Positions 1,707 to 45,244 of a DNA stretch of 64,000 bases are shown here, piece after piece. Location: the sequence record OR525701.1; one strand, 5' to 3'. The notes under the pieces are model-generated. The model made no database searches and was not told the origin of the DNA. It saw only the letters and a list, made by a program, of their open reading frames with translations. Position 1 is the first letter of the stretch. Each line of letters starts with the position of its first letter. Origin of the DNA: Escherichia phage vB-Eco-KMB38. A program made the translations under genes and the position numbers.

Positions 1707-1764
1707 AATTTCCTCCAAGTAGTTGATGAATGTATAGTATCAAAACCCTTGGAGGAAGTAAACA

Positions 1765-2565: not shown

Positions 2566-3024
2566 TTATAGGAGGGTAGTGAGCACCTTATATAATGATT
2601 TGCCCATTACATATTCCCATTGAGAAGGTTTAATTAAAGCGAATGCATCAAATTCAGGAATCTGACGTCCGTCCGGGAATGTATGATAGGAATTACAAAC
2701 ACTATTTCTGAATTGCTCGTGCTCTACAGGGATGGTATATAGGAACAGGTGAATATTCTTATTGTCTGAGTAATGATGTTCACCTAGGTCTTTCAGGAAG
2801 GCAGGGTCATATTGTGTAAACCCAGTTTCTTCTTCGCATTCACGAATAGCGGCTTCGATAGGAGATTCGCCGGGCTCGACACGACCTTTAGGAATATCCC
2901 ACCGATGAGCTAAAGAACCTTTAGGACGAGAACCAGTTACACGCCCCATGAATAATTCTTTATCTTCGGTAAGGAAAATAATACCAGCTGATAGTTCTTT
3001 CACTTTATTTTTCTTACTCATCAT
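2566..3024 (-). CDS. nudE: Nudix hydrolase
   Basis: Nudix box GRVEPGESPIEAAIRECEEETG; position immediately upstream of e as in T4 (e.1); start uncertain by 1-5 codons. Confidence 0.85.
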   Translation of the reverse strand: MMSKKNKVKELSAGIIFLTEDKELFMGRVTGSRPKGSLAHRWDIPKGRVEPGESPIEAAIRECEEETGFTQYDPAFLKDLGEHHYSDNKNIHLFLYTIPVEHEQFRNSVCNSYHTFPDGRQIPEFDAFALIKPSQWEYVMGKSLYKVLTTLL

Positions 3025-3512
3025 CTCAAATTCCTGCATTCAGTAATAAAACGTTCAACTTCATTATTCTTGGCCTTTATCTTGGCTTTATGTTCTTGTA
3101 AACTACTTTTAATAAGATTAATAATGATGGCGGCGGTACCGCCGCCAATGATGCCACCAACACCACTTATGATACTAGATGCTAATAAGATAGCAATAAT
3201 ATCAACAAAACCGAAAGAACTCACCTTAGTACTGAAAAACCATATAGACGGTGCAAATATAATCCATCCTGTTATCCATTGACACTTATTGAAAAACTTT
3301 TCAAGCTCAGCTTGAGTTGTTCGTATTACTTCATCGATAGGTTGATATCCATTAATGTATCTGTTCACGATAATACCTGCTGGCTGGTCGATTTTAAATG
3401 CTTGACAATGGCGTTTCACTAAGTATGATGGACATCCTGTCCAATCTATAGAATAATATGAAATACCTTCGTCGCCATCGTCCATGTTTGTCCAGTGAAT
3501 TTTATGTATCAT
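3021..3512 (-). CDS. Hypothetical membrane protein (C-terminal TM segment, tail ERFITECRNLR)
   Basis: ORF with hydrophobic stretch IIAILLASSIISGVGGIIGGGTAAIII; no recognised homologue. Confidence 0.5.
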   Translation of the reverse strand: MIHKIHWTNMDDGDEGISYYSIDWTGCPSYLVKRHCQAFKIDQPAGIIVNRYINGYQPIDEVIRTTQAELEKFFNKCQWITGWIIFAPSIWFFSTKVSSFGFVDIIAILLASSIISGVGGIIGGGTAAIIINLIKSSLQEHKAKIKAKNNEVERFITECRNLR

Positions 3513-4198
3513 TACCAGCCTTCCATAGGGAATTCCAGATAAACTTGGGCGTTGACACGAATTTCATTGGTAATCTTTTTAACTCGGTCTGTATTACGAG
3601 ATACACGTCCGAACCAACGCCATCCATTACTAATTGCACGAGAACCAGTGTGCCATGTTTGCCAATCAAACTGAAGAAGAGTACGATCTGGAGCTTCCCA
3701 TTTCTCTAGTTCGCCTTTTTCGATTTTTTCGAGGACTTCTTTGTGCCACTGGCGATAGATAAGTTCGCCATCAGGAATCTGACTGAACTCTGCAGTTCCT
3801 GTTGCAAAATGAGTAGGACACACATCAGCGTTAACAAGACCAAGAATATGTTCAGAATGGTAACGAGGGTTGTCATAATCAGGTTGTCCTGCAGTAATAA
3901 AGTGTTGACCTACCGGAATATCAGGGCGTGGTACATCGTCATGGTGATAACCTGGGATAGCAGGGTACCAACCAGGCATCAGCATGTGGACTCGTGAATC
4001 AAATACAACCTGGTCGGTGTTCCAATCATCAGGCAAGTTCATGATGAAGCTGCGAGTAATAGGACCGCCGTTATTATAAGCAAATTCTAAACTACAGTTA
4101 AAGAACATAGGCTCGTTCTTGATTTTATCATTAGAAATACCGCCGGCAAAACCACCTACTGCACGAGCTTGACTATTAAACACTTTAGAACTATTCAT
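3512..4198 (-). CDS. Hypothetical protein (228 aa)
   Basis: Long uninterrupted ORF; start codon adjacent to stop of upstream gene; function not recognised. Confidence 0.55.
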   Translation of the reverse strand: MNSSKVFNSQARAVGGFAGGISNDKIKNEPMFFNCSLEFAYNNGGPITRSFIMNLPDDWNTDQVVFDSRVHMLMPGWYPAIPGYHHDDVPRPDIPVGQHFITAGQPDYDNPRYHSEHILGLVNADVCPTHFATGTAEFSQIPDGELIYRQWHKEVLEKIEKGELEKWEAPDRTLLQFDWQTWHTGSRAISNGWRWFGRVSRNTDRVKKITNEIRVNAQVYLEFPMEGW

Positions 4199-4199
4199 A

Positions 4200-4505
4200 T
4201 TATTTTCCTCGACATTCTTTAATGAAATTTTCTAGATTGGTAGATTCAATAGCTTTTTTACGAGCTTCTGCGTGTTCTTCTTCAGACAATTTACGTTTAT
4301 AATTGACCCAGACATTATGGTCGAAACCAGTCGTGGCATATAATATCAATGCTCCAACGAATAGCAAAAACGGCGATAAGAATACAAAACCAGGAACACC
4401 ATCCATATCGTAAGCCTTTTGTAATACTGCAACAGAAAGAGCTACGTAAAAAGGTGATGCAAGTATTGTTAAAAGACCAATTCGGTTGGTTTCTGTTAAT
4501 TTCAT
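4200..4505 (-). CDS. Hypothetical small membrane protein
   Basis: Two hydrophobic helices; GAGGAG RBS; C-terminal ENFIKECRGK; downstream of PeSL promoter. Confidence 0.55.
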   Translation of the reverse strand: MKLTETNRIGLLTILASPFYVALSVAVLQKAYDMDGVPGFVFLSPFLLFVGALILYATTGFDHNVWVNYKRKLSEEEHAEARKKAIESTNLENFIKECRGK

Positions 4506-4520
4506 AATATTCTCCTCAAG

Positions 4521-4562
4521 TTGATAGGACTACTATAACATAGTCCTATAATTGTGTAAACA
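4521..4562 (-). promoter_or_regulatory. PeSL-type early promoter cassette (GTTTAC -35, extended -10 TGTTATAGT inside 10-bp inverted repeat)
   Basis: Plus strand gataggactactataacatagtcctataattgtgtaaac; near-identical copies at 5816 and 12439. Confidence 0.6.
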
Positions 4563-4573
4563 GTTTTGTGAAG

Positions 4574-5530
4574 TTATTTGAAAGGTTTTACCATATGGAA
4601 ATTTTGTTTGAAACGTTTGACGTAATCGTCATGTCCTAAGCGTTGGTACATACTTACAACTTTGCTGTAGTTTTCCCAGGCGTATTCACGGAACCAACCG
4701 GAGGTGATGCTTGTGCAAACTTTTTCTAATGCCATCATGAAACTGGCTTCAGAGTTAATTTCAAAGTTATTAGGAATCTGAGAACGTTCTAATGCTAGTA
4801 CACATGATTCTTCATATACACCGGCCAATTTGACCATTTCTGGTAACGATTCGAACTTCTCGCGTGAGGTCATGACTTCAGAACCATCTTTCATGTAAAA
4901 TGTATAAGCCGGACGGTCTGTTAGTGCAATGGCTTCGTGAATAGTATCATGGTCATATGTGTAGATGTCATCTTTAAAGAATGCGCTTTTAGAAGTGTCA
5001 AGAATCGGGTGAGCATAGTTCAAGGTTTCTTTCTGGCGTTTCAGCATAATTTCAGTAAGTTCATCGTTCAGTGTAACACCTTTACCACGAAGATACTGGA
5101 TATGGTTCATAGTCTTTAAAAAGAATGGATTATTTTTCTTGAAACGATGAGACATTTTAATTGCAAGACATATCTCAGGAGTTGCCCAGTAAAACCCGGT
5201 CAAACGATCTTTAGTCAAATTTTTCTTGGCGTATTTTAAAAGGTCATAAGAAGACGTGAAATCTTCAGGAGTGAGTTCACCGACTAATTCACGAACATTA
5301 GTGATTGCCGGAACAATATATGCTTCAAAATGAGTTTCGCGTCCATTATGGAAGCATTTGAAAACTTGGACATCAGGGTTATCTTGGTGAACATATACAC
5401 CCATCATTTGATTTTTGAATGCATTCCAAGAACCTTGGTCCGCAATAAAGTCCCAATCGCTATTTTTGATAGCGCTAGAATCAATAAGACCATGATAGTG
5501 AAGTGCACGAGAACCAATAACTAACATCAT
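4574..5530 (-). CDS. Hypothetical protein (318 aa)
   Basis: Long ORF with GAGGAAAATATT RBS; no recognised family. Confidence 0.55.
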   Translation of the reverse strand: MMLVIGSRALHYHGLIDSSAIKNSDWDFIADQGSWNAFKNQMMGVYVHQDNPDVQVFKCFHNGRETHFEAYIVPAITNVRELVGELTPEDFTSSYDLLKYAKKNLTKDRLTGFYWATPEICLAIKMSHRFKKNNPFFLKTMNHIQYLRGKGVTLNDELTEIMLKRQKETLNYAHPILDTSKSAFFKDDIYTYDHDTIHEAIALTDRPAYTFYMKDGSEVMTSREKFESLPEMVKLAGVYEESCVLALERSQIPNNFEINSEASFMMALEKVCTSITSGWFREYAWENYSKVVSMYQRLGHDDYVKRFKQNFHMVKPFK

Positions 5531-5558
5531 AATATTTTCCTCGGATTAATTCATCAAC

Positions 5559-5810
5559 TTAAATTTCACGACATGCGATATTATATTCATCCCATAGGTC
5601 ATCATGTGAAGCCTCTACCAATGGAACGATTGTACCGTTTATGTCTTCATTATAAGGGCAAATTGTACAGTGCGCATCTTCGAATCGGATGCCTTTGTGT
5701 TCAGATTTTTTATAACGCATATCGAATAACTTTGCAAACTTTTCACGAGTAATAGTTTTAGCAACTACTTCGGTTCCAATACTTTCGTAATAAATCATTG
5801 TGGACTCCAT
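5559..5810 (-). CDS. Hypothetical small protein with Cys/His cluster
   Basis: 83 aa, HCTICPYNEDING...H suggests possible metal binding; PeSL promoter directly upstream. Confidence 0.5.
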   Translation of the reverse strand: MESTMIYYESIGTEVVAKTITREKFAKLFDMRYKKSEHKGIRFEDAHCTICPYNEDINGTIVPLVEASHDDLWDEYNIACREI

Positions 5811-5815
5811 TTAAT

Positions 5816-5857
5816 TTGATAGGACTACTATAACATAGCCCTATCTTGTTGTAAACT
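5816..5857 (-). promoter_or_regulatory. PeSL-type early promoter cassette
   Basis: gataggactactataacatagccctatcttgttgtaaac, repeat of the element at 4521. Confidence 0.6.
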
Positions 5858-5860
5858 GTT

Positions 5861-6058
5861 TTAGCAAGAATAACTAGACGATACCCAGCCTTGAACAGTA
5901 ATGCTATTATTAGATAATGAGATTGCGTTCTGGAGATTCAGACCTGCGTTATCTTCAATCCATAATGTAACTTCTTCGCGTTCTTCTGTTGCAATTTGGA
6001 ACAGGTTTTCCAGGGCAGCTACTGCCGTACGTACAGCACAATCTAATTCACGAGACAT
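5861..6058 (-). CDS. Small protein, paralogue family member (ends GWVSSSYSC)
   Basis: 65 aa; shares C-terminal W-x-S-S-S-x-x-C motif with the next two genes. Confidence 0.5.
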   Translation of the reverse strand: MSRELDCAVRTAVAALENLFQIATEEREEVTLWIEDNAGLNLQNAISLSNNSITVQGWVSSSYSC

Positions 6059-6067
6059 ATGGTTTCC

Positions 6068-6340
6068 TTAGCAAGTGTGAGAAGATGCGATCCAACCACC
6101 AGTTTCGAGGCTCAGGTTGTAGTCGTATTGGTAAACGTCAGCCCATTCAGCATAGCCGTTTTTTGTACAACGTTCAAGATCGGCTTTAAGCTGTCCGGGT
6201 GAATGATATGTTCCACCCATACCATAAGCTGGATACAAGTCGAATGTTGTGTTTTGTTTATCAGCAATTTCTTTGGCAGCCTCAATAGCTGCATAGATTT
6301 TTGCTACAGCTTCAGCCAGTTCGGTTTGTTCTTTAGACAT
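6068..6340 (-). CDS. Small protein, paralogue family member (ends GGWIASSHTC)
   Basis: 90 aa; N-terminus MSKEQ; conserved C-terminal motif followed by TAAGGAA RBS of next gene. Confidence 0.5.
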   Translation of the reverse strand: MSKEQTELAEAVAKIYAAIEAAKEIADKQNTTFDLYPAYGMGGTYHSPGQLKADLERCTKNGYAEWADVYQYDYNLSLETGGWIASSHTC

Positions 6341-6349
6341 AATGATTCC

Positions 6350-6655
6350 TTAGCACAACGCAGAAGACGAAACCCAAGCACCTTCAGTAATAACGTAACC
6401 ATTACCTTCACGCTTAACATCGCCACCATTATTTTCAATTTCATCTTTCATCCACTGGGATACGATTTCACCCTTAGGATAATAAGTACGACCGCTACCA
6501 TAATCACCTACAGAAAATGATACAGAATATTGGTCTGCGATCTTTGTTGCTTCTTCTTCGATACGTTCAGCTTGATTCAGAAGTTTATAAATTGCATCTG
6601 AAGCGGATTTGGCATCATTAAACTCTGGTACTTTAATTTCAATAATCTTACTCAT
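6350..6655 (-). CDS. Small protein, paralogue family member (ends GAWVSSSALC)
   Basis: 101 aa; N-terminus MSKI; same C-terminal motif. Confidence 0.5.
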   Translation of the reverse strand: MSKIIEIKVPEFNDAKSASDAIYKLLNQAERIEEEATKIADQYSVSFSVGDYGSGRTYYPKGEIVSQWMKDEIENNGGDVKREGNGYVITEGAWVSSSALC

Positions 6656-7011
6656 TTTCTACATTCCTTAATAAAGTTTTCTATTGTTTCATTTTCACGT
6701 CTAGCTAGGAGTTCATTATAACTAATCATTTGAGAAGCGTAAACCTTTTTATTTTTCTTGTTATGGTTTATAAAATCGTAGTAAAAATAGACTACAGTAC
6801 AAAAGGATGCGATGGATGCAAAGGCTTGGGTATACCGTAAGTCCTGCCATTGGTCTGTGAATCCACCAGTGTTCCCTATAAATCCTAACACAACGCCGTC
6901 AATAAGAAATCCAACTAATCCAAAGGCAAATCCCATGCCAATACTCATAATAAAAATTAGAATGTTCTCACCAAGAGAAGGCCATACGGTTAAGAGTTGA
7001 GGTTTTTGCAT
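6652..7011 (-). CDS. Hypothetical membrane protein
   Basis: Hydrophobic segments; AAGGAAAT RBS; C-terminal IENFIKECRK. Confidence 0.55.
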   Translation of the reverse strand: MQKPQLLTVWPSLGENILIFIMSIGMGFAFGLVGFLIDGVVLGFIGNTGGFTDQWQDLRYTQAFASIASFCTVVYFYYDFINHNKKNKKVYASQMISYNELLARRENETIENFIKECRK

Positions 7012-7385
7012 CTTATTTCCTTAACGAATTCCATAGCTTCTTCATATTCATACTTTTTAACAGCTTCATCATACTGAGCTTGGGCTTTTGCGCACTGAAC
7101 TTTCCACTCGCGAACTCGAGCTCTGTGATGACGGCCTTGGTGCCAATATCCTGCCCAATTAATAGGCATTAATAAAAACGGTACAATAAGTGGTGCGACG
7201 AACATTAATGAAAACGCTGCATCAGACGATATAACTTTATTGGAATCTAAAATAGCTCCTATAATCATAAAGATTAAAAATGCTAAAGCTAAAATAGGGC
7301 CAAATAGTACTTCGTTTGGGATTAATTTACGTTTGTATTCGTATGCCCATGGCTTAATTGGCATGTACAGGGTTGGCTTTGACAT
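6990..7385 (-). CDS. Hypothetical membrane protein
   Basis: ORF-track start at 7415 is TTG; first ATG gives MSKPTLYMPIK; two hydrophobic helices; C-terminal EFVKEIRCK. Confidence 0.5.
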   Translation of the reverse strand: MSKPTLYMPIKPWAYEYKRKLIPNEVLFGPILALAFLIFMIIGAILDSNKVISSDAAFSLMFVAPLIVPFLLMPINWAGYWHQGRHHRARVREWKVQCAKAQAQYDEAVKKYEYEEAMEFVKEIRCKNLNS

Positions 7386-7977
7386 ATTCTCTACATTCCA
7401 TAATAAATTGCTCAAGGATTAAATTGTTAGTGAAATTAGGACTAACAACCATAGTTTCATAAAGCGCATCAATAGCACTTAAAGCATCAACTCTTTTAAG
7501 CAAAGGCTTGCCTTCATACATAGTTTCAGAATCGACGATTAACGTAAAGTAATATTTTTTATTATCGACTAGAACTTCTGTGTCGATATAAAACATATTA
7601 GACCTCAGAAGCTTATCTCTAAAACCATAATAATCTTCTGAACGTTCGCTGATATATTCCCATTCAGTGTTTAAACAACAAACAGACCACGTAGGAGCAA
7701 CGAAATCAGTGAATCTAATATCATGGTCTGCAACTAGTTTAGCAATAGCTCCGATATCATGAATCATAATACCTGGGGCTAATAAAGATTTTCTGCTATG
7801 GCTAGCCGTTTTCTCAGTGGTCTCATAAGAAGCTGACCAGTACCATTTACGTCCGGTTGCAACATATCGTAATGAATCAACTAAAGACGTAGGTGGATTT
7901 ACCTTATCTCGGAACTCTTCGAACATCGAGTCAATATCATTATTTTGGTTTCGCATGTTAACTCCTTTATCATCCAA
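7354..7977 (-). CDS. Hypothetical protein (207 aa)
   Basis: ORF with C-terminal EQFIMECREY motif overlapping next gene start. Confidence 0.5.
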   Translation of the reverse strand: MDDKGVNMRNQNNDIDSMFEEFRDKVNPPTSLVDSLRYVATGRKWYWSASYETTEKTASHSRKSLLAPGIMIHDIGAIAKLVADHDIRFTDFVAPTWSVCCLNTEWEYISERSEDYYGFRDKLLRSNMFYIDTEVLVDNKKYYFTLIVDSETMYEGKPLLKRVDALSAIDALYETMVVSPNFTNNLILEQFIMECREYVKANPVHAN

Positions 7978-8005
7978 AAGGAGGACCGGAGTCCTCCGTA
8001 TTATT

Positions 8006-8599
8006 TTATTTCAAAGAGTTAATATATTCTTGTACATCAGCAGAAGTGGTTTCGACACCGGCTGGAGTACCATTGAACGTTTCAACACGAGTCAGAGTGT
8101 CTTCGATATCAACCTTAGTCAGTGCAGCGATTTCAATTACATCATCGGCCGTAGAGATACCAAGGGCATTGGCTGCTCGAGTTTCACGAATGTATTCGAG
8201 TTTGATTGCCAGATTCTGACGAGCATCATCAAGTTCAACCACCTTACGAGCAATTTCAATTCGCATAGCGGCATACCCGTCGGCTTTTGTATTAAGTTGT
8301 TCGGCAGTTCGACGATACAGAAGACCAAGCTTAGCATGCATGGTAACATCTTGTCCTTCGGCCAAGAGCTTACGAATTTCACGTTCCTTAGAAGCGGCTT
8401 GTTTATTCTTTTCAATAACAAGTTCGCGAATACGTTTTTCTTCATTAATAGATTTAACAGAAGCCGTTTTTAGTTCTTTGATTTGGGTAATCAACTTATC
8501 TGCAGCTGCGTTATACTGTTCTTCGACAGTCAGATTTTTAGCCATAGCAGTACCCAGTTTAGTGCGGATGAATTCAACAAGTTTCTTCAGTGTGTTCAT
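8006..8599 (-). CDS. Coiled-coil protein, possibly PspA/IM30-like
   Basis: Start at MNTLKK after AAAGG RBS (ORF-track start is 5 codons upstream); heptad-rich, charge-alternating sequence resembling PspA architecture; assignment is inference. Confidence 0.45.
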
Positions 8600-8669
8600 A
8601 TTATTACCTTTCAATTGGTGGTTTATTATCCAATGAGAGCATTATACTCTGCTCTCAAGAGTTTGTAAA

Positions 8670-8897
8670 TTATTTTTTAATCAAATTGACATAAAACTTG
8701 GCGTCTTCCGGGTGCATGCCTTCACAGTATTCTTCAACCATGAACTTCTTAACAGCTTCATAAGGACCACTCAGATTAAGCTCAGTTGTCCAGAACTTGG
8801 AATCTTGGGCTGAATCGATACGAACTTCAGGGTGACGGTTGCGAATAACTTCTTCGGTATATTCATAATCAACGACATCAATACTAACTTTAGCCAT
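8670..8897 (-). CDS. Hypothetical small protein (75 aa)
   Basis: ORF with AGAGGAAAAC RBS downstream of an early promoter. Confidence 0.5.
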   Translation of the reverse strand: MAKVSIDVVDYEYTEEVIRNRHPEVRIDSAQDSKFWTTELNLSGPYEAVKKFMVEEYCEGMHPEDAKFYVNLIKK

Positions 8898-8914
8898 TTT
8901 GTTTTCCTCTTGAT

Positions 8915-8958
8915 TTGATGTGATTACTATAACATAAACTTACTTAGATGTAAATTAT
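8915..8958 (-). promoter_or_regulatory. Early promoter (ATTTAC -35, TGTTATAGT extended -10)
   Basis: Minus-strand sense AATTTACATCTAAGTAAGTTTATGTTATAGTAATCACATCAA. Confidence 0.45.
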
Positions 8959-9108
8959 TTCAACGTCACCTTTAGCGGCTTTATAACCTTCAGCCCAAGA
9001 TACAACAGAGTTTTTATCTGAGGATTCAAATTCAGGCATTGGACTTTCACCGATATTCACACAGTATGTTTCTTCATTTTCATCGAACCAAATAATTAAA
9101 GTAGTCAT
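8945..9108 (-). CDS. Hypothetical small protein (~54 aa, below ORF-track cut-off)
   Basis: MTTLIIWFDENEETYCVNIGESPMPEF... preceded by GAGGAGTAAACAAA RBS and a promoter; coordinates approximate. Confidence 0.35.
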
Positions 9109-9168
9109 TTTGTTTACTCCTCTGTAGTTGATAAGTCTATAGTATCACCATCCTTGGTGCTTGTACAT
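9107..9168 (-). promoter_or_regulatory. Early promoter cassette; 44-bp copy also present at 45181-45224
   Basis: tcattttgtttactcctctgtagttgataagtctatagtatcac repeated near-exactly at 45181. Confidence 0.5.
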
Positions 9169-9176
9169 CGTTATTT

Positions 9177-9482
9177 TTAATTTTTCCAACTTAACAACTT
9201 GTAGTGTCCTTCATTCGTACGAGGTTTATCCCAAGAAATACTAATATATGATTCGCTATCAATAGAAGTCGCCGGGTTTTTCTCTACCGTAAGACCTTCA
9301 CTTTCCAGCCATTCAATAGTATTTGCGCATAAATCAGAAGAACACCTCATCGGGAACCGGCAAGATTTTTCACCTTTAGCTGCAGTGTTATACATCTTTT
9401 CTAGAATACGCTTTTGCACGTTTTTAAAAATAGTTTCAGCAGATTCTTCAGATTTTTTATTCAGTTCAGTATAAAGACTCAT
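9177..9482 (-). CDS. Hypothetical protein (101 aa)
   Basis: ORF with GAGGAAAATG RBS downstream of early promoter. Confidence 0.5.
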   Translation of the reverse strand: MSLYTELNKKSEESAETIFKNVQKRILEKMYNTAAKGEKSCRFPMRCSSDLCANTIEWLESEGLTVEKNPATSIDSESYISISWDKPRTNEGHYKLLSWKN

Positions 9483-9499
9483 AACATTTTCCTCTGCGG

Positions 9500-9540
9500 T
9501 TGATAAGTCTATAGTATCATGTCCTTAGAAGAAGTAAACA
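9500..9540 (-). promoter_or_regulatory. Early promoter (GTTTAC -35, TGATACTAT extended -10)
   Basis: Minus-strand sense GTTTACTTCTTCTAAGGACATGATACTATAGACTTATCAAC. Confidence 0.55.
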
Positions 9541-9570
9541 TCTTTATGAAATATTTTTATGCCCTAGATA

Positions 9571-9599
9571 CCAAAAAGCCCCAACCGTAAGGAAGGGGC
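9571..9599 (-). terminator. Rho-independent terminator (GCCCC...GGGGC hairpin plus U-run on minus strand)
   Basis: gccccaaccgtaaggaaggggc preceded on plus strand by aaaaa; lies just 3' of Ip gene 9606..10070. Confidence 0.55.
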
Positions 9600-9605
9600 A
9601 TTCTA

Positions 9606-10070
9606 TTATTTAATTTGTTTAGCAGACCAGATACGGTCTTTAATAAGTTTTTGGATATCTTCAACATACTCAAGGCTATGAGCGTGAGGATTATCTTTGA
9701 AACTATGTGCTCGTGCCAGTTTCTGGCCTTCTGTTTTGATTACTAAAAGCTCTTTAAGAATTGCTTCATACTTAGAAATAATTCCTTTGGCGATATTTTT
9801 TTCTTGAGCTGTTTTAGGGTCCGCTTTTGGCGCAGGTGCTTTACCTGTAGCTTTCTGGAACAATTCACCTGATGCAGCTAGGCTTTTAAAAACTCGGCTA
9901 ACAGTATTAGCATTAGTAAAACCTTCGGCTTTAAAATCTCTAATAAAACGGAAACGTTCTTCATCGGAGGCGTCTTTGTAAGAATATTTACCTGCTTGAA
10001 TTGCTGCAATCGCAGCGGCTTTTACATCTGAACTAGATTGTTCAGTCAAAAATTCAGCGTATGATTTCAT
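9606..10070 (-). CDS. Internal protein (Ip-type) with capsid-targeting sequence
   Basis: N-terminus MKSYAEFLTE; 154 aa. Confidence 0.55.
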   Translation of the reverse strand: MKSYAEFLTEQSSSDVKAAAIAAIQAGKYSYKDASDEERFRFIRDFKAEGFTNANTVSRVFKSLAASGELFQKATGKAPAPKADPKTAQEKNIAKGIISKYEAILKELLVIKTEGQKLARAHSFKDNPHAHSLEYVEDIQKLIKDRIWSAKQIK

Positions 10071-10113
10071 GTTGCTTTTCCTAAGTTAATTAACTTATCT
10101 ATTTATTATTATA

Positions 10114-10142
10114 CCAAAAAGCCCCAACCTTTCGGAAGGGGC
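10114..10142 (-). terminator. Rho-independent terminator
   Basis: gccccaacctttcggaaggggc with U-run on minus strand; near-copy of hairpin at 9578. Confidence 0.55.
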
Positions 10143-10194
10143 TAAGCCTTGCGGCAACCTTGTCGGGGTTCCACCTGCTAAGGCAAGTGTTTGT

Positions 10195-10286
10195 ACGAAA
10201 CGCCGGGATTCGAACCCGGTTATTAAGTAGTTGACGCTACTCAATATTTTTAAAAGGCCATATCTCGACCATATCCGAACGTTCCG
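10195..10286 (-). ncRNA. tRNA-like structured RNA (canonical T-arm and acceptor pairing, aberrant D/anticodon region)
   Basis: Minus-sense CCGGGTTCGAATCCCGG T-arm; 5' CGGAACG pairs with 3' CGTTTCG; interior does not fold as a standard cloverleaf. Confidence 0.3.
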
Positions 10287-10456
10287 TCAAAAACGCTACT
10301 CGGCTTACGGCAAAGATATTTCCTCGAATCGATAATTCTGTGCGCCGTTTCTGCTGTGAGATAAGGGACTTTAAGATGTCAACTCATGTACGCCTTAAAG
10401 TCGGGTCTTATTCAGGGAACATCAGTCCGACGACTTGCCGGTAGCGACCCGGCTTC

Positions 10457-10801
10457 TTATTTTGGCATATCATCAATTTGCTCTCGACGCCGACGCCATA
10501 GATTAATCGCTTCATTAACACATTCGGCGTTTGGTATATGACGGCAATAATATAATGATTCACGTTTCTGGAACCGATGTTGCAACGGGATTTCGTTTAA
10601 AAGGTCTTTACGGTCAAAGTATTCAAAACTAGTTAACCCAGAACGGTTTTTAATGAACTTCCAATGTCCAAATTCATTTTGAACATAGATGTAATCGGCA
10701 TGCTGATACAGCGAATTAATCAATCGATGAGAAATAACTGTATCATATTCGTTAAAATAAAACGTTAAATCATGAACTACCAGATAAACATTGCCTTTCA
10801 T
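10457..10801 (-). CDS. Hypothetical protein
   Basis: ORF-track start at 10849 would overlap tRNA-Arg; internal Met MKGNVYLVVHDL chosen. Confidence 0.45.
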   Translation of the reverse strand: MKGNVYLVVHDLTFYFNEYDTVISHRLINSLYQHADYIYVQNEFGHWKFIKNRSGLTSFEYFDRKDLLNEIPLQHRFQKRESLYYCRHIPNAECVNEAINLWRRRREQIDDMPK

Positions 10802-10819
10802 ATTTTCCTCACTTAAAGT

Positions 10820-10896
<77 letters not shown>

Positions 10897-10902
10897 AATA
10901 TA

Positions 10903-10976
10903 TGACCCAGACCAGATTCGAACTGGTAACCTTTCCCTTATGAGGGGACTGCTGCTAACCGTTGAGCTACAGGGCC
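10903..10976 (-). tRNA. tRNA with CAU anticodon (Ile2/Met type)
   Basis: Minus sense GGCCCTG...GTCCC-CTCATAA-GGGAA...ACCAG-TTCGAAT-CTGGT-CTGGGTC-A; adjacent to tRNA-Arg as in the T4 Ile-Arg pair. Confidence 0.65.
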
Positions 10977-11038
10977 TAAATAACTTTCTATTATGAAAGG
11001 CACTTTAGAGCACCTTTGGTAATAGATGGTATGAATTA

Positions 11039-11065
11039 ATAATAACACATAATTCTTAAAGCAAA
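11039..11065 (-). promoter_or_regulatory. Candidate MotA-dependent middle promoter upstream of the tRNA genes
   Basis: Minus sense TTTGCTTTA (MotA-box-like) followed 12 nt later by TATTAT. Confidence 0.4.
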
Positions 11066-11571
11066 TCAATCATTTTAACAGTTGGCAAAACGATTTCTTC
11101 TTCAATATAAGCAAATTCAACACATTCAACTACACGCAAGAAATCATAATCATAATATTCAGAAGCATGACCAAGAATACCAACGAGACCTTCTGATACT
11201 AAATATCCATTCTCACGGAACAGGTCGAATACACGCGATTCGTCTTCTTCAGATTTATTACCAAGGTCGACTTCAATATCAAAGACCTTTTTAATGAATT
11301 CTGGATAAAGCTGGTCTGAGAACAGTCCTTCAACCAAGTATTCGTAGATTAAAAGCGAGCAATCACTGAATGGTGTATTACCACAGTAACGTTCAGCTTT
11401 AGTGCTGGAATGACGACTCTTAAATTTCTTCAAAAGATATTTAAACTGTTGGAGCTCATGCTCTTCCACTTCAAACAATGTTTTGGTTTTATAGTTGTCA
11501 CCATCATTTTCATAAGTAGTGACATCAATTACGTAACCCTTAGGAATTGTACTGCCTAAACAAATATTCAT
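11056..11571 (-). CDS. Hypothetical protein (171 aa)
   Basis: ORF; acidic; no recognised family. Confidence 0.5.
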   Translation of the reverse strand: MNICLGSTIPKGYVIDVTTYENDGDNYKTKTLFEVEEHELQQFKYLLKKFKSRHSSTKAERYCGNTPFSDCSLLIYEYLVEGLFSDQLYPEFIKKVFDIEVDLGNKSEEDESRVFDLFRENGYLVSEGLVGILGHASEYYDYDFLRVVECVEFAYIEEEIVLPTVKMIDLL

Positions 11572-11575
11572 TTAC

Positions 11576-11866
11576 TCACCGTACCATATTAATGTAATTA
11601 TATTCAATGCAACGTAATTTCAAAGGATTCTTGAAAATATCATATTCAAGAGGGCCTTTTTCTGTTTCAATAAAGAAATCAAAGTTAACTGTGTTAAATT
11701 TATCATCTTCACAGAGTAATTTAACTTGCGAAGATGAACGGTCGATATAAACCTTTTCAACCTCAAAGTTAGTCAGAATACCATAGTCATTAACTAGTGC
11801 TTTAGCTGCACGTTGATCGCTTTCATATCCATTCTCGACAGATTTTACTTTAGCATAAAGAATCAT
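11576..11866 (-). CDS. Hypothetical protein (96 aa)
   Basis: ORF with start overlapping the upstream stop. Confidence 0.5.
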   Translation of the reverse strand: MILYAKVKSVENGYESDQRAAKALVNDYGILTNFEVEKVYIDRSSSQVKLLCEDDKFNTVNFDFFIETEKGPLEYDIFKNPLKLRCIEYNYINMVR

Positions 11867-12225
11867 GAGTGTTCCACCACTTCAAAGGTATGAGCATCAA
11901 CAATATGATACCAGTCAAAATTTTCTTCTGCGTTTTTATAAATTTCGCGAAGAGCCTCAACAGTTTTTCCTGTAGCAACAAGGTCGTCAATACCGCCAAG
12001 AGGATAACAGTCATATCCAGCAAACAGAAGGAAATTAATAGTTTCTGTAGGTTCTGGATGCAGAACACCGTTATCGTCTACCACTTCAAAGAAAGTGTAA
12101 GAAGGAGTACAAGTTTTAATCCAAGCCCATGCTTGAGCTGCTGAATCAAATGGTCTGCGTATCAAACGACAATCAGGGTCTTTAGAAGGATTTGCTTCAA
12201 AATCTGCATATACATGATATTTCAT
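11863..12225 (-). CDS. Hypothetical protein (120 aa)
   Basis: ORF; tight packing with neighbours. Confidence 0.5.
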   Translation of the reverse strand: MKYHVYADFEANPSKDPDCRLIRRPFDSAAQAWAWIKTCTPSYTFFEVVDDNGVLHPEPTETINFLLFAGYDCYPLGGIDDLVATGKTVEALREIYKNAEENFDWYHIVDAHTFEVVEHS

Positions 12226-12432
12226 TTACTCACCTTTTGCAATTTTATCCATAACAATAGCGATTAAACCGATTAGAAATGCTACTACCAATGAGATAGA
12301 ATTTTCTGTTGTTGTCAGTAGTCCACAAATGAATCCTACAAACATCGAAAAACTAAAGGCCATTGAAGCAATTACTACAGCAACATTACGAATCAGTTCA
12401 GCGCGTTTCATTTTATTTCTCCATTTACTCAT
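12226..12432 (-). CDS. Hypothetical small membrane protein
   Basis: 68 aa with two hydrophobic helices; PeSL promoter upstream. Confidence 0.5.
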   Translation of the reverse strand: MSKWRNKMKRAELIRNVAVVIASMAFSFSMFVGFICGLLTTTENSISLVVAFLIGLIAIVMDKIAKGE

Positions 12433-12438
12433 TTGTTT

Positions 12439-12478
12439 TGATAGGACTACTATAACATAGTCCTATCGTGTTGTAAAC
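12439..12478 (-). promoter_or_regulatory. PeSL-type early promoter cassette
   Basis: gataggactactataacatagtcctatcgtgttgtaaac, third copy of the 4521 element. Confidence 0.6.
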
Positions 12479-12481
12479 TAC

Positions 12482-12769
12482 TTACAGAAGAGTTTTTGCA
12501 ATAATTTTAAGCTGAGCTACAGAAATATGCTTAGCTTTAAACAGTGCAGTCTCTTCAGCCGGAGAGATAACAATAGTAGCGCCATCTTTCTTAGCAGACC
12601 ATCCATCCCCTAAGTAAACAGTACCTTTTACTTCTTCACCATCAACCAGACTAATCATTGGTTTACCCTCACGTCCTTTATTTGTTTTAATAACTTCAGA
12701 AGTAAGGGATGCTTCGGTCAGAGTAGAAACGTTAGCAACAGGTGATATAAATTCTTTATAGGTTTTCAT
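12482..12769 (-). CDS. Internal protein (Ip-type), at the ipI position upstream of 57B
   Basis: N-terminus MKTYKEFIS...TLTE; 95 aa; synteny with T4 ipI. Confidence 0.6.
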   Translation of the reverse strand: MKTYKEFISPVANVSTLTEASLTSEVIKTNKGREGKPMISLVDGEEVKGTVYLGDGWSAKKDGATIVISPAEETALFKAKHISVAQLKIIAKTLL

Positions 12770-12793
12770 TTTATTTCCTTGAGGCTGTTTATT

Positions 12794-12833
12794 TGATAGG
12801 ATGATAGTAACACACCATCATCCTTATGTAAAC
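12794..12833 (-). promoter_or_regulatory. PeSL-type early promoter cassette (variant)
   Basis: Minus-strand sense GTTTACATAAGGATGATGGTGTGTTACTATCATCCTATCAA with GGATGAT/ATCATCC inverted repeat. Confidence 0.55.
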
Positions 12834-12846
12834 TGTTTTGTGAAAA

Positions 12847-13532
<686 letters not shown>

Positions 13533-13536
13533 TTTA

Positions 13537-14271
13537 TTACCTTAAGATTTTTTCAATTTTAGAATAAAGCTCTTCTAAAGAGCCGTCGTTTGTAATAACT
13601 AAGTCGCCTTCTTCAATAGGCAACCCAGCTTCTGTAATATGTTTATCAGTGGATTCCGTACCAGAGCGAACCACATGAATAACTGTAGCACCCATCGCTC
13701 TAGCGGTTTCCATTTCATGGACTTGGCGTGTATCGGTCACAACGTAGTAATCGAAATCACTTCCAATATAATCCATATAGTTTAATGCAAAAAGCTTAAC
13801 CCAATACATACGGTCAAATAAATTAACGACAACATCCGTACCGAGGGCTTGCATAAGACGGCGGATCGACCACGTGTCGTTGATATTATTTATAGCTTCA
13901 CGCAGGGCTTCGTACGGTTTAATATCTAGATATGAGTATCCACCTTCTAGTGATGATAATACGTTAACACCATTAATTGGCAGGTATTGTCGTTGTAAAT
14001 AAATTAGCGTTTCTTCCATTAATTCAATAACATCTAATTTATTGAGATTTAATGGTGTTTCACGGTCGTATCCAATACCTTCAAAGTATTCGTATTTCAA
14101 CTCAGTGAATACATCCGGGTTTTCGACGTGTTTACGCTCCCAAGCTATTGCTAGAGAGTCTTTAATTGGATATGCTAATTGATATTTTATGGATTTAAAG
14201 TTTGAATTGATGTAATCAGCAGTAGTGTCTTTACCACTACGTTTGATGCCGCTTAAAAAGATTAGCTCCAT
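13537..14271 (-). CDS. 1: Deoxynucleoside monophosphate kinase
   Basis: MELIFLSGIKRSGKDTTADY P-loop and overall similarity to T4 gp1. Confidence 0.9.
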   Translation of the reverse strand: MELIFLSGIKRSGKDTTADYINSNFKSIKYQLAYPIKDSLAIAWERKHVENPDVFTELKYEYFEGIGYDRETPLNLNKLDVIELMEETLIYLQRQYLPINGVNVLSSLEGGYSYLDIKPYEALREAINNINDTWSIRRLMQALGTDVVVNLFDRMYWVKLFALNYMDYIGSDFDYYVVTDTRQVHEMETARAMGATVIHVVRSGTESTDKHITEAGLPIEEGDLVITNDGSLEELYSKIEKILR

Positions 14272-14325
14272 AGGTTTTTCCTCATATAATTTATGAACGA
14301 TTATAACATATGGAGCTAGAAGCGA

Positions 14326-14916
14326 TTAGCGCAAGGAAGGATGTCTAGAAATGGATTTAGATTCGGCAGCTTGACGTGGTTGTTGAGATACAATGACTTC
14401 GCCATCCTTTTCTATCGTCATATACGCGTAGTGAATAGTTGCTACGCACGTAACGGCAGGATCAGAGTCTTCAGTGTAACTAAATTCAATTTCGCTCAAA
14501 TCGGAAATCCATGGTTTATAGAAATTTGCCGTCAAAACCACTTCAGTCTTATTGTTGTTTAAAATGTGCAAAGTAACAAACTCAGGACCATCGGAGTGTG
14601 CCGTATTATGGCCGGTTATATAGTTATTAGTGCTGAGCATCCATTTATACATGTTCATCCAGGACGTCATGTCTTCATCAACTATAAATCGTACAATAAA
14701 AGGGTCATATTCAAATGTAGTGCCTGCACGCATTGCACGACCTAGCCCCATTGTGCCAGTCACAGTTTCAACAACAGGAATTCTCACACCTGGCAGTGGA
14801 GCCGTTTGGGCATTGAGCACAAAACCTGAAGTTCGTGTACTATCCGGGATATCCACAACAAAGTTTGTTATATTTGTTTGGTTAAAAATCTGTCTCGCTG
14901 GACGAGTCATAAGCAC
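14326..14916 (-). CDS. 3: gp3 tail completion/sheath stabiliser
   Basis: Synteny between genes 1 and 2; start codon uncertain. Confidence 0.6.
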   Translation of the reverse strand: MLMTRPARQIFNQTNITNFVVDIPDSTRTSGFVLNAQTAPLPGVRIPVVETVTGTMGLGRAMRAGTTFEYDPFIVRFIVDEDMTSWMNMYKWMLSTNNYITGHNTAHSDGPEFVTLHILNNNKTEVVLTANFYKPWISDLSEIEFSYTEDSDPAVTCVATIHYAYMTIEKDGEVIVSQQPRQAAESKSISRHPSLR

Positions 14917-44914: not shown

Positions 44915-45184
44915 TTATTTCTGTGCAATTTCGATGTAAGTTTTCAAAATATTTTGCCAATTAGGCATACCTTCTTGGACATATGCTGGAGAACCGTCTT
45001 TGTTTTTGAATGATGCAAGTTTATCAGTGGCCCAATAACCTTTAGCTCGAGCTTCAGAATCAACTTTCATCCATACTTTGTTGAAGGCATTACCATTAAC
45101 TTTTGCACCATATTTTTCTACTAACTTAACGGCTTCAGTTTCCAGAACTTTTAAAGTATCTCGTAAGAAACGTGCTTTAGTCAT
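44915..45184 (-). CDS. Hypothetical protein (89 aa) in the 23-24 intergenic slot
   Basis: ORF with GAGGAGTAAACAAA RBS and its own early promoter; T4 carries segD at this position. Confidence 0.55.
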   Translation of the reverse strand: MTKARFLRDTLKVLETEAVKLVEKYGAKVNGNAFNKVWMKVDSEARAKGYWATDKLASFKNKDGSPAYVQEGMPNWQNILKTYIEIAQK

Positions 45185-45204
45185 TTTGTTTACTCCTCTG
45201 TAGT

Positions 45205-45244
45205 TGATAAGTCTATAGTATCACATACCAAATACGTTGTAAAC
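45205..45244 (-). promoter_or_regulatory. PeSL-type early promoter cassette
   Basis: Minus-strand sense GTTTACAACGTATTTGGTATGTGATACTATAGACTTATCAAC. Confidence 0.55.

Follow-up and report, generated by a model that had tools for sequence, protein, structure and literature searches.

Promoter early stem-loops (PeSLs) were described in phages RB49 and phi1 as elements that combine a strong early promoter with a stem-loop (Arbiol 2010, PMC2839356). Five positional subclasses were distinguished, the commonest having the stem-loop in the space that separates the -35 from the -10 or overlapping the -10, and promoter activity, terminator activity and mini-circles were demonstrated in RB49/phi1 (PMC2839356). 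According to the same paper, PeSL-like sequences had been seen by Repoila et al. (1994) at two T-even internal-protein loci, and the T-even elements are analogues rather than homologues, with T4 early promoters and weaker AT-rich stems (Arbiol 2010, PMC2839356). PeSLs were later extended to T4 and PST, with the promoter pattern TTTACW-N17-TAYWAT and AGNA...TCNT stems (Comeau 2014, PMC4122927). The T4 early ('uber') promoters have an upstream (UP) region, a -35, TGn and a -10, plus extra conserved positions (Hinton 2010, PMC2988021). Here, a family of promoter cassettes was analyzed in a 64,000-nucleotide (nt) stretch of Escherichia phage vB-Eco-KMB38 (OR525701.1; 'the window'), where PeSL-like elements with a palindromic -10 region had been proposed between positions 4521 and 12833 (the original prediction). 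In about half of these promoters the extended -10 lies in the loop of a hairpin of 8-12 base pairs (bp), the pairing of the hairpin is under selection, and it behaves as a sense-strand structure.

The region belongs to an RB69-type phage: over positions 4000-13500 it has 100% identity to Escherichia phage AlbertHofmann (Bas47; a Mosigvirus of the RB69 group, Straboviridae, Tevenvirinae), which we take from the name Bas47 to be a phage of the BASEL collection, and 95-97% identity to many other Mosigvirus genomes. All genes of the region are on the minus strand (e, nudE, small e.x open reading frames (ORFs), two transfer RNAs (tRNAs), trna.2-4, ipI, 57B, 57A, 1 and 3), therefore the elements were read as reverse complements. 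Read in this way, each site has (G/A)TTTACA, 17 nt and (TGn)TATAGT or TACTAT, with a Shine-Dalgarno sequence and an ATG 17-35 nt after the -10, and the promoters match at 10-11 of 12 positions where TG is present. The pattern of T4-type sigma70 early promoters (-35 GTTTAC(A), 17 +/- 1 nt, TAnnnT, usually TGn) was found at all seven sites listed in the original prediction and at 8641 (promoters are referred to by their -10 coordinates); departures from consensus were ATTTAC at 8926 and 8641, ATGTAC at 9139, and a missing TG at 8641. The A-rich UP region expected before the -35 was present as TTCACAAAAC(A/T) or AAAAAATA, and the start region between the -10 and the Shine-Dalgarno sequence is CCTATCAA. 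Like PeSLs, the elements are intergenic, and each leads into a small accessory ORF, whose Shine-Dalgarno sequence and start codon form the end of the element. The elements are thus placed by their motifs as minus-strand sigma70 early promoters of a T-even (RB69-type) phage, with predicted activity and start sites.

Much of the original prediction stood on this reading. The near-identical copies at 4521, 5816 and 12439 are real: the 28-mer GATAGGACTACTATAACATAGTCCTATC occurs at 4523-4550, 5818-5845 and 12440-12467 with 1, 1 and 0 mismatches, against 0 occurrences expected (100 shuffles). The PeSL-like interpretation was likewise supported: in identity, strand and anatomy the promoters agree with the T4 early type, and the PeSL literature matches. 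A GTTTAC -35, which had been claimed for every element, was found at most sites, the exceptions being ATTTAC at the 8915 variant and ATGTAC at the 9107 variant, and the plus-strand GTTTAC at 9112 is no -35 but the complement of a leader GTAAAC between the Shine-Dalgarno sequence and the ATG. An inverted repeat of 8-10 bp around each -10 held for 4532, 5827, 12449 and 12804 and not for the 8915, 9107 and 9500 variants (3 of the 7). The downstream genes, proposed to be small ORFans, are indeed small ORFs of unknown function, but all fall into PHROG families and one is ipI.

The hairpins were identified by folding. Stable structures were predicted at 4532 (-12.7 kcal/mol, z -2.3), 5827 (-16.0 kcal/mol, z -5.5), 12449 (-16.6 kcal/mol, z -5.3) and 12804 (-15.4 kcal/mol, z -3.7), and a fifth at the 8641 promoter (8634-8670; -13.8 kcal/mol, z -4.0), which was absent from the original list. 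Folding of the 8915, 9107 and 9500 variants gave no significant structure (z -1.0, -0.6 and +0.4); at 9107 and 9500 there is only a 5-bp TGATA/TATCA, which is the overlap of two consensus motifs. A PeSL-type stem-loop is therefore present at 5 of the 8 promoters in 4500-12850 and missing at 8926, 9139 and 9511. In the promoters that have one, the spacer (approximately -26 to -17), which is otherwise free, can pair with the segment that starts at the end of the -10 and reaches approximately +3. The stems do not all share a sequence, as three unrelated arm pairs occur within the window (GAUAGGACUA/UAGUCCUAUC, UGAGAGCA/UGCUCUCA and GGAUGAUGG/CUAUCAUCC). Counted from the last base of the -10 hexamer, the 5' arm starts approximately 20 nt earlier and the 3' arm ends a median of 10 nt later. 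If transcription starts at the A of CCTATCAA, as we infer from the usual 7-nt distance, the 3' arm would end at approximately +3 or +4. Because the stem ends at the predicted start site, the promoter's own transcript would lack the 5' arm and only read-through RNA would fold the stem.

Selection on the pairing was assessed in a promoter set picked by motifs only (two IMG/VR pattern scans, seven Mosigvirus relatives and T4). Across 176 non-redundant promoters, each followed by a Shine-Dalgarno sequence and an ATG, the duplex between spacer and downstream stretch had a mean of -8.19 kcal/mol, compared with -5.13 +/- 0.18 kcal/mol when partners were swapped (z -17); for T-even loci alone, the partner-swap z was -10. 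Duplexes of -10 kcal/mol or better made up 35% of the set; among swapped pairs their share was 5.6%, and among chance matches lacking a gene start it was 8%. In all, 81 distinct helices enclosing the -10 were counted. Covariation was calculated in a gap-free alignment of 58 promoters with GTTTAC-N15-TGTTATAGT, chosen by -35 and -10 only. The 12-bp helix of the window copy scored 0.340, compared with 0.199 +/- 0.016 for shuffles (0 of 500 reached 0.340) and 0.125-0.169 for registers in which the 3' partner was slid by 1-3 columns; 61.8% of cells were paired, against 51.0% after shuffling and 32-48% after sliding. Stems of -9 to -20 kcal/mol around the -10, with different arms, also occur at several presumably active early promoters of the homologous region of T4 (60-78 kb), among them the promoters directly upstream of ipI and trna.4.

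Paired changes could also be followed between close relatives. A change of the start region from CCTATC to CCTACC or CCTACAC is accompanied by a change of the spacer from GATAGG to GGTAGG or GTGTAGG. The window and two IMG/VR contigs (L251 and L249), which have a 99% common 57B, form a stem series in the trna.4 promoter, with GATAGG/CCTATC in the window (12440-12467), GGTAGG/CCTATC, a G.U pair, in L251 (3211-3280) and GGTAGG/CCTACC in L249 (6453-6530). This series is a compensatory change via a wobble intermediate. The strand on which pairing matters was approached through interior non-Watson-Crick pairs, which on the sense strand were G.T/T.G in 18 cases and A.C/C.A in 3 (binomial p = 0.0015); with pairs touching the -35, TG or -10 removed the counts were 10 and 3, and at constrained bases 8 and 0. 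Flanking non-Watson-Crick pairs were tried as a neutral G.U/A.C baseline and rejected, as consensus bases dominate them (T.G of TGTTATAG inside the stem, C/A of one family outside it). The excess favours a structure of the sense strand, of which RNA would be the simplest reading.

The hairpins were also set against the positions of canonical terminators. With a canonical terminator within 130 nt upstream, 1 of 20 promoters had a hairpin, compared with 60 of 156 promoters without such a terminator (Fisher p = 0.002); for T-even loci alone the counts were 0 of 6 and 18 of 42 (Mann-Whitney p = 0.02, Fisher p = 0.07). Within the window, the hairpin-free 9511 promoter lies directly behind the canonical terminator at 9568-9599. 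This scarcity is as expected if the hairpin acts on read-through RNA. The promoter stems themselves were considered as intrinsic terminators, which is what the annotators of SA79RD called them (WebGeSTer), and this was rejected: the GC-rich stem plus U-tract is lacking, the tails are A-rich (AUCAAAACAAAU), and a simple terminator scan recovered none of the stems, so classical intrinsic termination is unlikely. Any effect on RNA would rather consist in a pause, in attenuation or, once the RNA has been processed, in a 3' stem that protects it. The PeSL model's 'attenuator' half would then apply in a non-canonical form, and its 'terminator' half is not supported by canonical features.

Variable gene content was surveyed by comparing positions 3021-14500 of the window with seven Mosigvirus relatives. 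One of the genomes met in the comparisons, ST2 (OM982647), is filed in its public record under Guernseyvirinae/Kagunavirus, while its sequence is a 171-kb Mosigvirus approximately 97% identical to the window. Seven distinct sites of insertion or deletion (indel) were found, five of them in promoter elements; the outcome that would have refuted the original prediction, an absence of any link to variable gene content among relatives, thus did not come about. At 4555-4561, a 263-bp cassette with one ORF is present in SA79RD and JK45, with its own promoter and hairpin (AGGUCU.../...AGACCU). At 8661-8675, SA79RD has an additional 292 bp. PhAPEC2 lacks positions 8920-9101 and with them the 54-amino-acid ORF, and the junction (8919/9102) joins the 9139 promoter to the next gene. 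In place of 9494-9570, three relatives have approximately 1.1 kb. At 12406-12480, WFbE185 and JK45 have an additional 259 bp and Shf125875 an additional 363 bp (ip7); in the first two phages, the extra gene has a copy of the 75-bp element on either side. The inserted cassettes carry their own promoter and hairpin. The two indels outside the elements are within an ORF (9192-9225) and in the tRNA cluster (10834-10899). At the latter, the two tRNAs known from the window flank a third one, annotated as Asn or Asx, in ST2 and PhAPEC2.

Exchange was also seen within single promoters. Among relatives the 8926 promoter is chimeric, having aatcacatc or agtcctatc downstream of the -10 with the upstream half unchanged, and an A/G polymorphism in the stem is common to paralogous promoter copies. 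In L249 and L251 the ipI cassette is absent, and the UP/-35 block of ipI is joined to the stem, -10 and leader of trna.4 in one promoter. Phages with 99% common 57B accordingly differ in the count of ip cassettes (0 vs 1), and in 30 IMG/VR T-even contigs the interval between 57B and trna.4 ranges from 63 to 1649 bp, containing anything from no ORF to at least 6 small ORFs, commonly with such a promoter in front. The chimeric promoters show crossovers, or exchange, inside the elements. These junctions show that the conserved blocks flanking the spacer (an UP/-35 block of approximately 18 nt, and 25-75 bp of -10, start region and leader) act as short patches of homology, at which single-ORF cassettes have been inserted, deleted and swapped between related phages and paralogous promoter copies converted.

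Taken together, the elements probably combine early promoters, a hairpin on read-through RNA and homology patches for cassette exchange, and as such form a T-even analogue of PeSLs. The parts of each element are an UP region rich in A, (G/A)TTTACA, a spacer of 17 nt, a -10 that usually has TGn, CCTATCAA, and then the Shine-Dalgarno sequence and ATG of a small accessory gene. The promoter's own transcript would lack the 5' arm, and the RNA reading through from the upstream gene would be the only one able to fold the stem. The hairpin would punctuate adjacent early transcription units, either by pausing or attenuating read-through or by giving the upstream mRNA a protective 3' stem after processing, and in this role it would stand in for a canonical terminator. 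Cassettes would come and go via homology between the conserved promoter blocks.

Several points weigh against this reading. The IMG/VR promoter set includes related sequences and some phages that are not T-even. The enrichment of breakpoints in elements, approximately p = 2e-5 for 5 of 7 sites against a uniform null, is modest against an intergenic-only null (approximately p = 0.04, both by our own arithmetic), where 5 of 6 intergenic events are scored and the elements occupy roughly 40% of non-coding DNA. The G.U excess drops to 10 vs 3 off the constrained bases and could partly be strand-biased mutation; a hairpin of the non-template DNA strand would account for it as well. Approximately half of the promoters are without a hairpin (8926, 9139, 9511 and 993), no U-tract follows the stems where there is one and none was picked up by the terminator scan. 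Finally, promoter activity, start sites and the effect of the hairpin on RNA are all deduced from the sequence. A literature search for T4 3'-end or start-site mapping yielded nothing usable.

A broader proposition is that the -10 hairpin is a general mark of transcript origin in T-even early regions, an RNA structure maintained through G.U pairs that substitutes for terminators between cassettes with promoters of their own. The transcript of each promoter would begin at the 3' edge of the hairpin and so be free of it, and all read-through transcripts would include it. We regard this proposition as tentative, and rather doubtful at its full breadth. If true, the hairpin as an origin mark would determine the 3' end of read-through RNA, how stable it is or, as at denV, how well it can be translated; the gene e and I-TevI logic, a matter of a few late genes, would then cover a large share of the early promoters too, and the 'extra' conserved positions of T4 early promoters would be explained.

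Of the competing explanations, the two that survive best are about equally improbable. The first is that the inverted repeat acts in DNA, as a cruciform or single-stranded hairpin cut or bound by structure-specific recombination enzymes, e.g., T4 endonuclease VII, the RNA hairpin being incidental; the promoters would then be hot spots of recombination. Breakpoints and chimeric promoters do cluster in the elements, covariation preserves pairing on both DNA strands as well, and one mini-circle crossover was mapped to the loop of a PeSL stem-loop (Arbiol 2010, PMC2839356). A cruciform, however, needs both strands paired, and each G.T on the sense strand is an A.C on the other (18 vs 3). The crossovers fall mostly in the -35/UP block or the leader and not in the stem, and a role in DNA does not predict that hairpins avoid positions behind terminators. 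Stems of 8-12 bp with loops of 6-8 nt are, moreover, known to extrude poorly as cruciforms. We therefore consider an action in DNA unlikely.

The second is that the hairpin is a translational insulator, sequestering the Shine-Dalgarno sequence in read-through RNA in the way known from e, soc, 49 and I-TevI of T4 (Uzan and Miller 2010, PMC3014915, for review). In partition-function folding, such sequestration was found only at the denV promoter, a related family member outside the originally noted range (1707..1763, minus strand; -10 1734-1739; denV 1293-1706). Here the spacer TCCTCCAAG pairs with the Shine-Dalgarno region of denV (CTTGGAGGA), and the start region is predicted to be 0.31 unpaired in read-through RNA and 0.72 unpaired in RNA started at the promoter itself. 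In T4 PdenV other bases (CTCCTGTAG/CTACAGGAG) maintain the pairing, and one helix class ends in the Shine-Dalgarno sequence. The predicted denV layout resembles the gene e / I-TevI principle, but with an early promoter. In the main elements, by contrast, 5-20 nt separate the end of the stem from the Shine-Dalgarno sequence. Between read-through RNA and own transcript, the accessibility predicted there is unchanged at 5827, 8641 and 12804 and changes moderately at 12449 (0.66 vs 0.86); at 4532 it is roughly halved (0.40 vs 0.79) through pairing outside the stem, which stops before the Shine-Dalgarno sequence. As an account of the family, insulation is improbable.

A palindrome centred on the -10 could also be an operator, at which a dimeric DNA-binding protein of phage or host shuts off early promoters, and early-promoter shut-off has been called 'not completely understood' (PMC3014915). 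The arms, however, are wholly different within one genome (GATAGGACTA, TGAGAGCA and GGATGATGG), so that one protein cannot read all the palindromes; they covary rather than being conserved, for which the operator was rejected, and half of the early promoters have no palindrome, which leaves this explanation very little room. That the palindrome is a functionless accident of one founder promoter, copied along, would suit the three nearly identical copies and is refuted, with a residual likelihood close to nil, by 81 distinct helices with unrelated arms, the partner swap (z -17), covariation above controls and the compensatory series.

The individual elements, all on the minus strand, are as follows. 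The 4532 promoter (4524..4572) precedes a 101-amino-acid ORF (4200-4505, RB69ORF133c-like); it has the -10 TATAGT at 4532-4537, the UP/-35 block TTCACAAAACTGTTTACA at 4555-4572, and arms at 4541-4549 and 4524-4532 (9 bp, loop of 8 nt). The 5827 promoter (5818..5856) precedes an 83-amino-acid ORF (5559-5810, RB69ORF135c-like) and has GTTTACA at 5850-5856, the -10 at 5827-5832, and arms at 5836-5845 and 5818-5827 (10 bp, one of them a G.U, a pair possible on the minus, or sense, strand only). These two lie in direct repeats at 4521 and 5816, 1295 bp apart, and a repeat family of 66 nt also takes in 8895 and 12773. The 8641 promoter (8634..8670), of an e.6-like 197-amino-acid ORF, reads ATTTACA-N17-TATAAT without TG, and its arms (8650-8657 and 8634-8641, TGAGAGCA/TGCTCTCA) have the -10 inside the loop. 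The trna.4 promoter and leader (12406..12480; 68-amino-acid ORF 12226-12432) has GTTTACA at 12472-12478, the -10 at 12449-12454, and arms at 12458-12467 and 12440-12449 (10 bp). The ipI promoter (12799..12844; ipI 12482-12769) has its UP/-35 block at 12827-12844 and the -10 TACTAT at 12804-12809; its arms (12815-12823 and 12799-12807, GGAUGAUGG/CUAUCAUCC; 9 bp with one G.U) are shifted approximately 3 nt into the -10.

Three promoters of the region are hairpin-free. One precedes a frd.3-like 75-amino-acid ORF (8920..8955, ATTTACA-N17-TGTTATAGT), and another a 101-amino-acid ORF at 9177-9482 (9500..9539, GTTTACT-N16-TGATACTAT). The third (9102..9167, ATGTACA-N17-TGATACTAT, with a 5-bp inverted repeat only) precedes a 54-amino-acid ORF (8944-9108, ORF145c-like). 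Outside the noted range, further -10 hexamers of the family lie at 993, 1734, 45215, 48061 and 61286, and an early promoter at 45178..45244 precedes an 89-amino-acid ORF that has the major capsid gene on one side and the vertex gene on the other. A block of 47 bp is repeated without a mismatch at 9102-9148 and 45178-45224; it begins with the extended -10, includes the leader and ends with ATGACTA, such that two unrelated ORFs 36 kb apart (54 and 89 amino acids) are both preceded by an identical -10/leader block. A regulatory cassette carrying the 47-bp block looks portable.

Other features were noted alongside. The canonical terminators at 9568-9599 and 10111-10142 (GCCCC...GGGGC plus a T-run on the minus strand) form a direct repeat of 32 nt, 91% identical, flanking a 154-amino-acid ORF (9606-10070), and may represent cassette boundaries of a second type. 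No gene is annotated in the 386 nt (10071-10456) that separate two ORFs downstream of the tRNA pair. The T4 small RNAs rnaC and rnaD lie near tRNAs; an Rfam scan of the whole window at gathering thresholds returned the two tRNAs only, and a permissive Rfam scan of the gap (9990-10560) nothing credible. Five IMG/VR contigs that do not look T-even (L024, L039, L051, L056 and L100; approximately 44-75 kb) have promoters of the form GTTTACA-N14-TGTTATAGT, with AAATAT ahead of the -10 paired to ATGTTT behind it, and a comparable promoter-hairpin layout may occur in other phage groups.

The cassettes are of practical interest as seams where T4-like phages gain, lose and exchange small accessory genes, including injected internal proteins that counter host defences, and knowledge of such seams aids the reading and engineering of therapeutic phages. 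The value added here is quantitative: the -10 stem is selected, apparently on the sense strand and probably as RNA, and is mutually exclusive with ordinary terminators, which turns the descriptive label 'stem-loop' into a testable function. As far as we found, the literature on PeSLs and T4 promoters does not contain the statistics of stem selection, the sense-strand G.U bias, the end of the stem at the predicted start or the terminator exclusion.

Compared with the PeSLs of RB49/phi1, the elements of the window have the same order of early promoter, stem-loop (often over the -10), Shine-Dalgarno sequence and ATG of a small accessory ORF. They likewise cluster in hyperplastic regions, where close relatives differ by indels and replacements at the elements. 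Sequence homology to RB49 is lacking: the -35 is TTGACA there and GTTTAC here, and the stems have G-runs and C-runs there but are AT-rich here with no U-tract. Terminator activity and mini-circles were shown for the RB49/phi1 elements, whereas those of the window are candidates in both respects. Membership among PeSLs thus holds for anatomy, position and indel association and fails for homology to RB49. The PeSLs of T4/PST and the T-even ip repeats are closer, with the same promoter consensus, the AGNA...TCNT stem, an ipI locus by 57B and variable ip cassettes; the stem is 'just upstream' of the promoter according to the figure legend (PMC4122927), whereas both the window and T4 have the -10 enclosed by it. 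The T4 early promoters (PMC2988021) share UP, -35, TGn, -10 and extra conserved positions, but the reviews do not ascribe the extra conservation to intramolecular pairing. In T4 e, soc, 49 and I-TevI (PMC3014915) a promoter also lies within a hairpin, such that its own transcripts lack the 5' arm and read-through RNA folds, and the denV promoter of the window works likewise on paper; those are late promoters that have the Shine-Dalgarno sequence or AUG sequestered, while here the promoters are mostly early and the stem stops before the Shine-Dalgarno sequence. Lambdoid morons and integron cassettes are also single genes that are mobile with their own expression signals; here, unlike in those systems, the expression signal would itself supply the homology for exchange, with no integrase or att site. 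Elements of this kind have been described before, and this genome adds new members; the comparison supports placing them as putative T-even PeSL analogues in a Mosigvirus, the classical ipI locus included.

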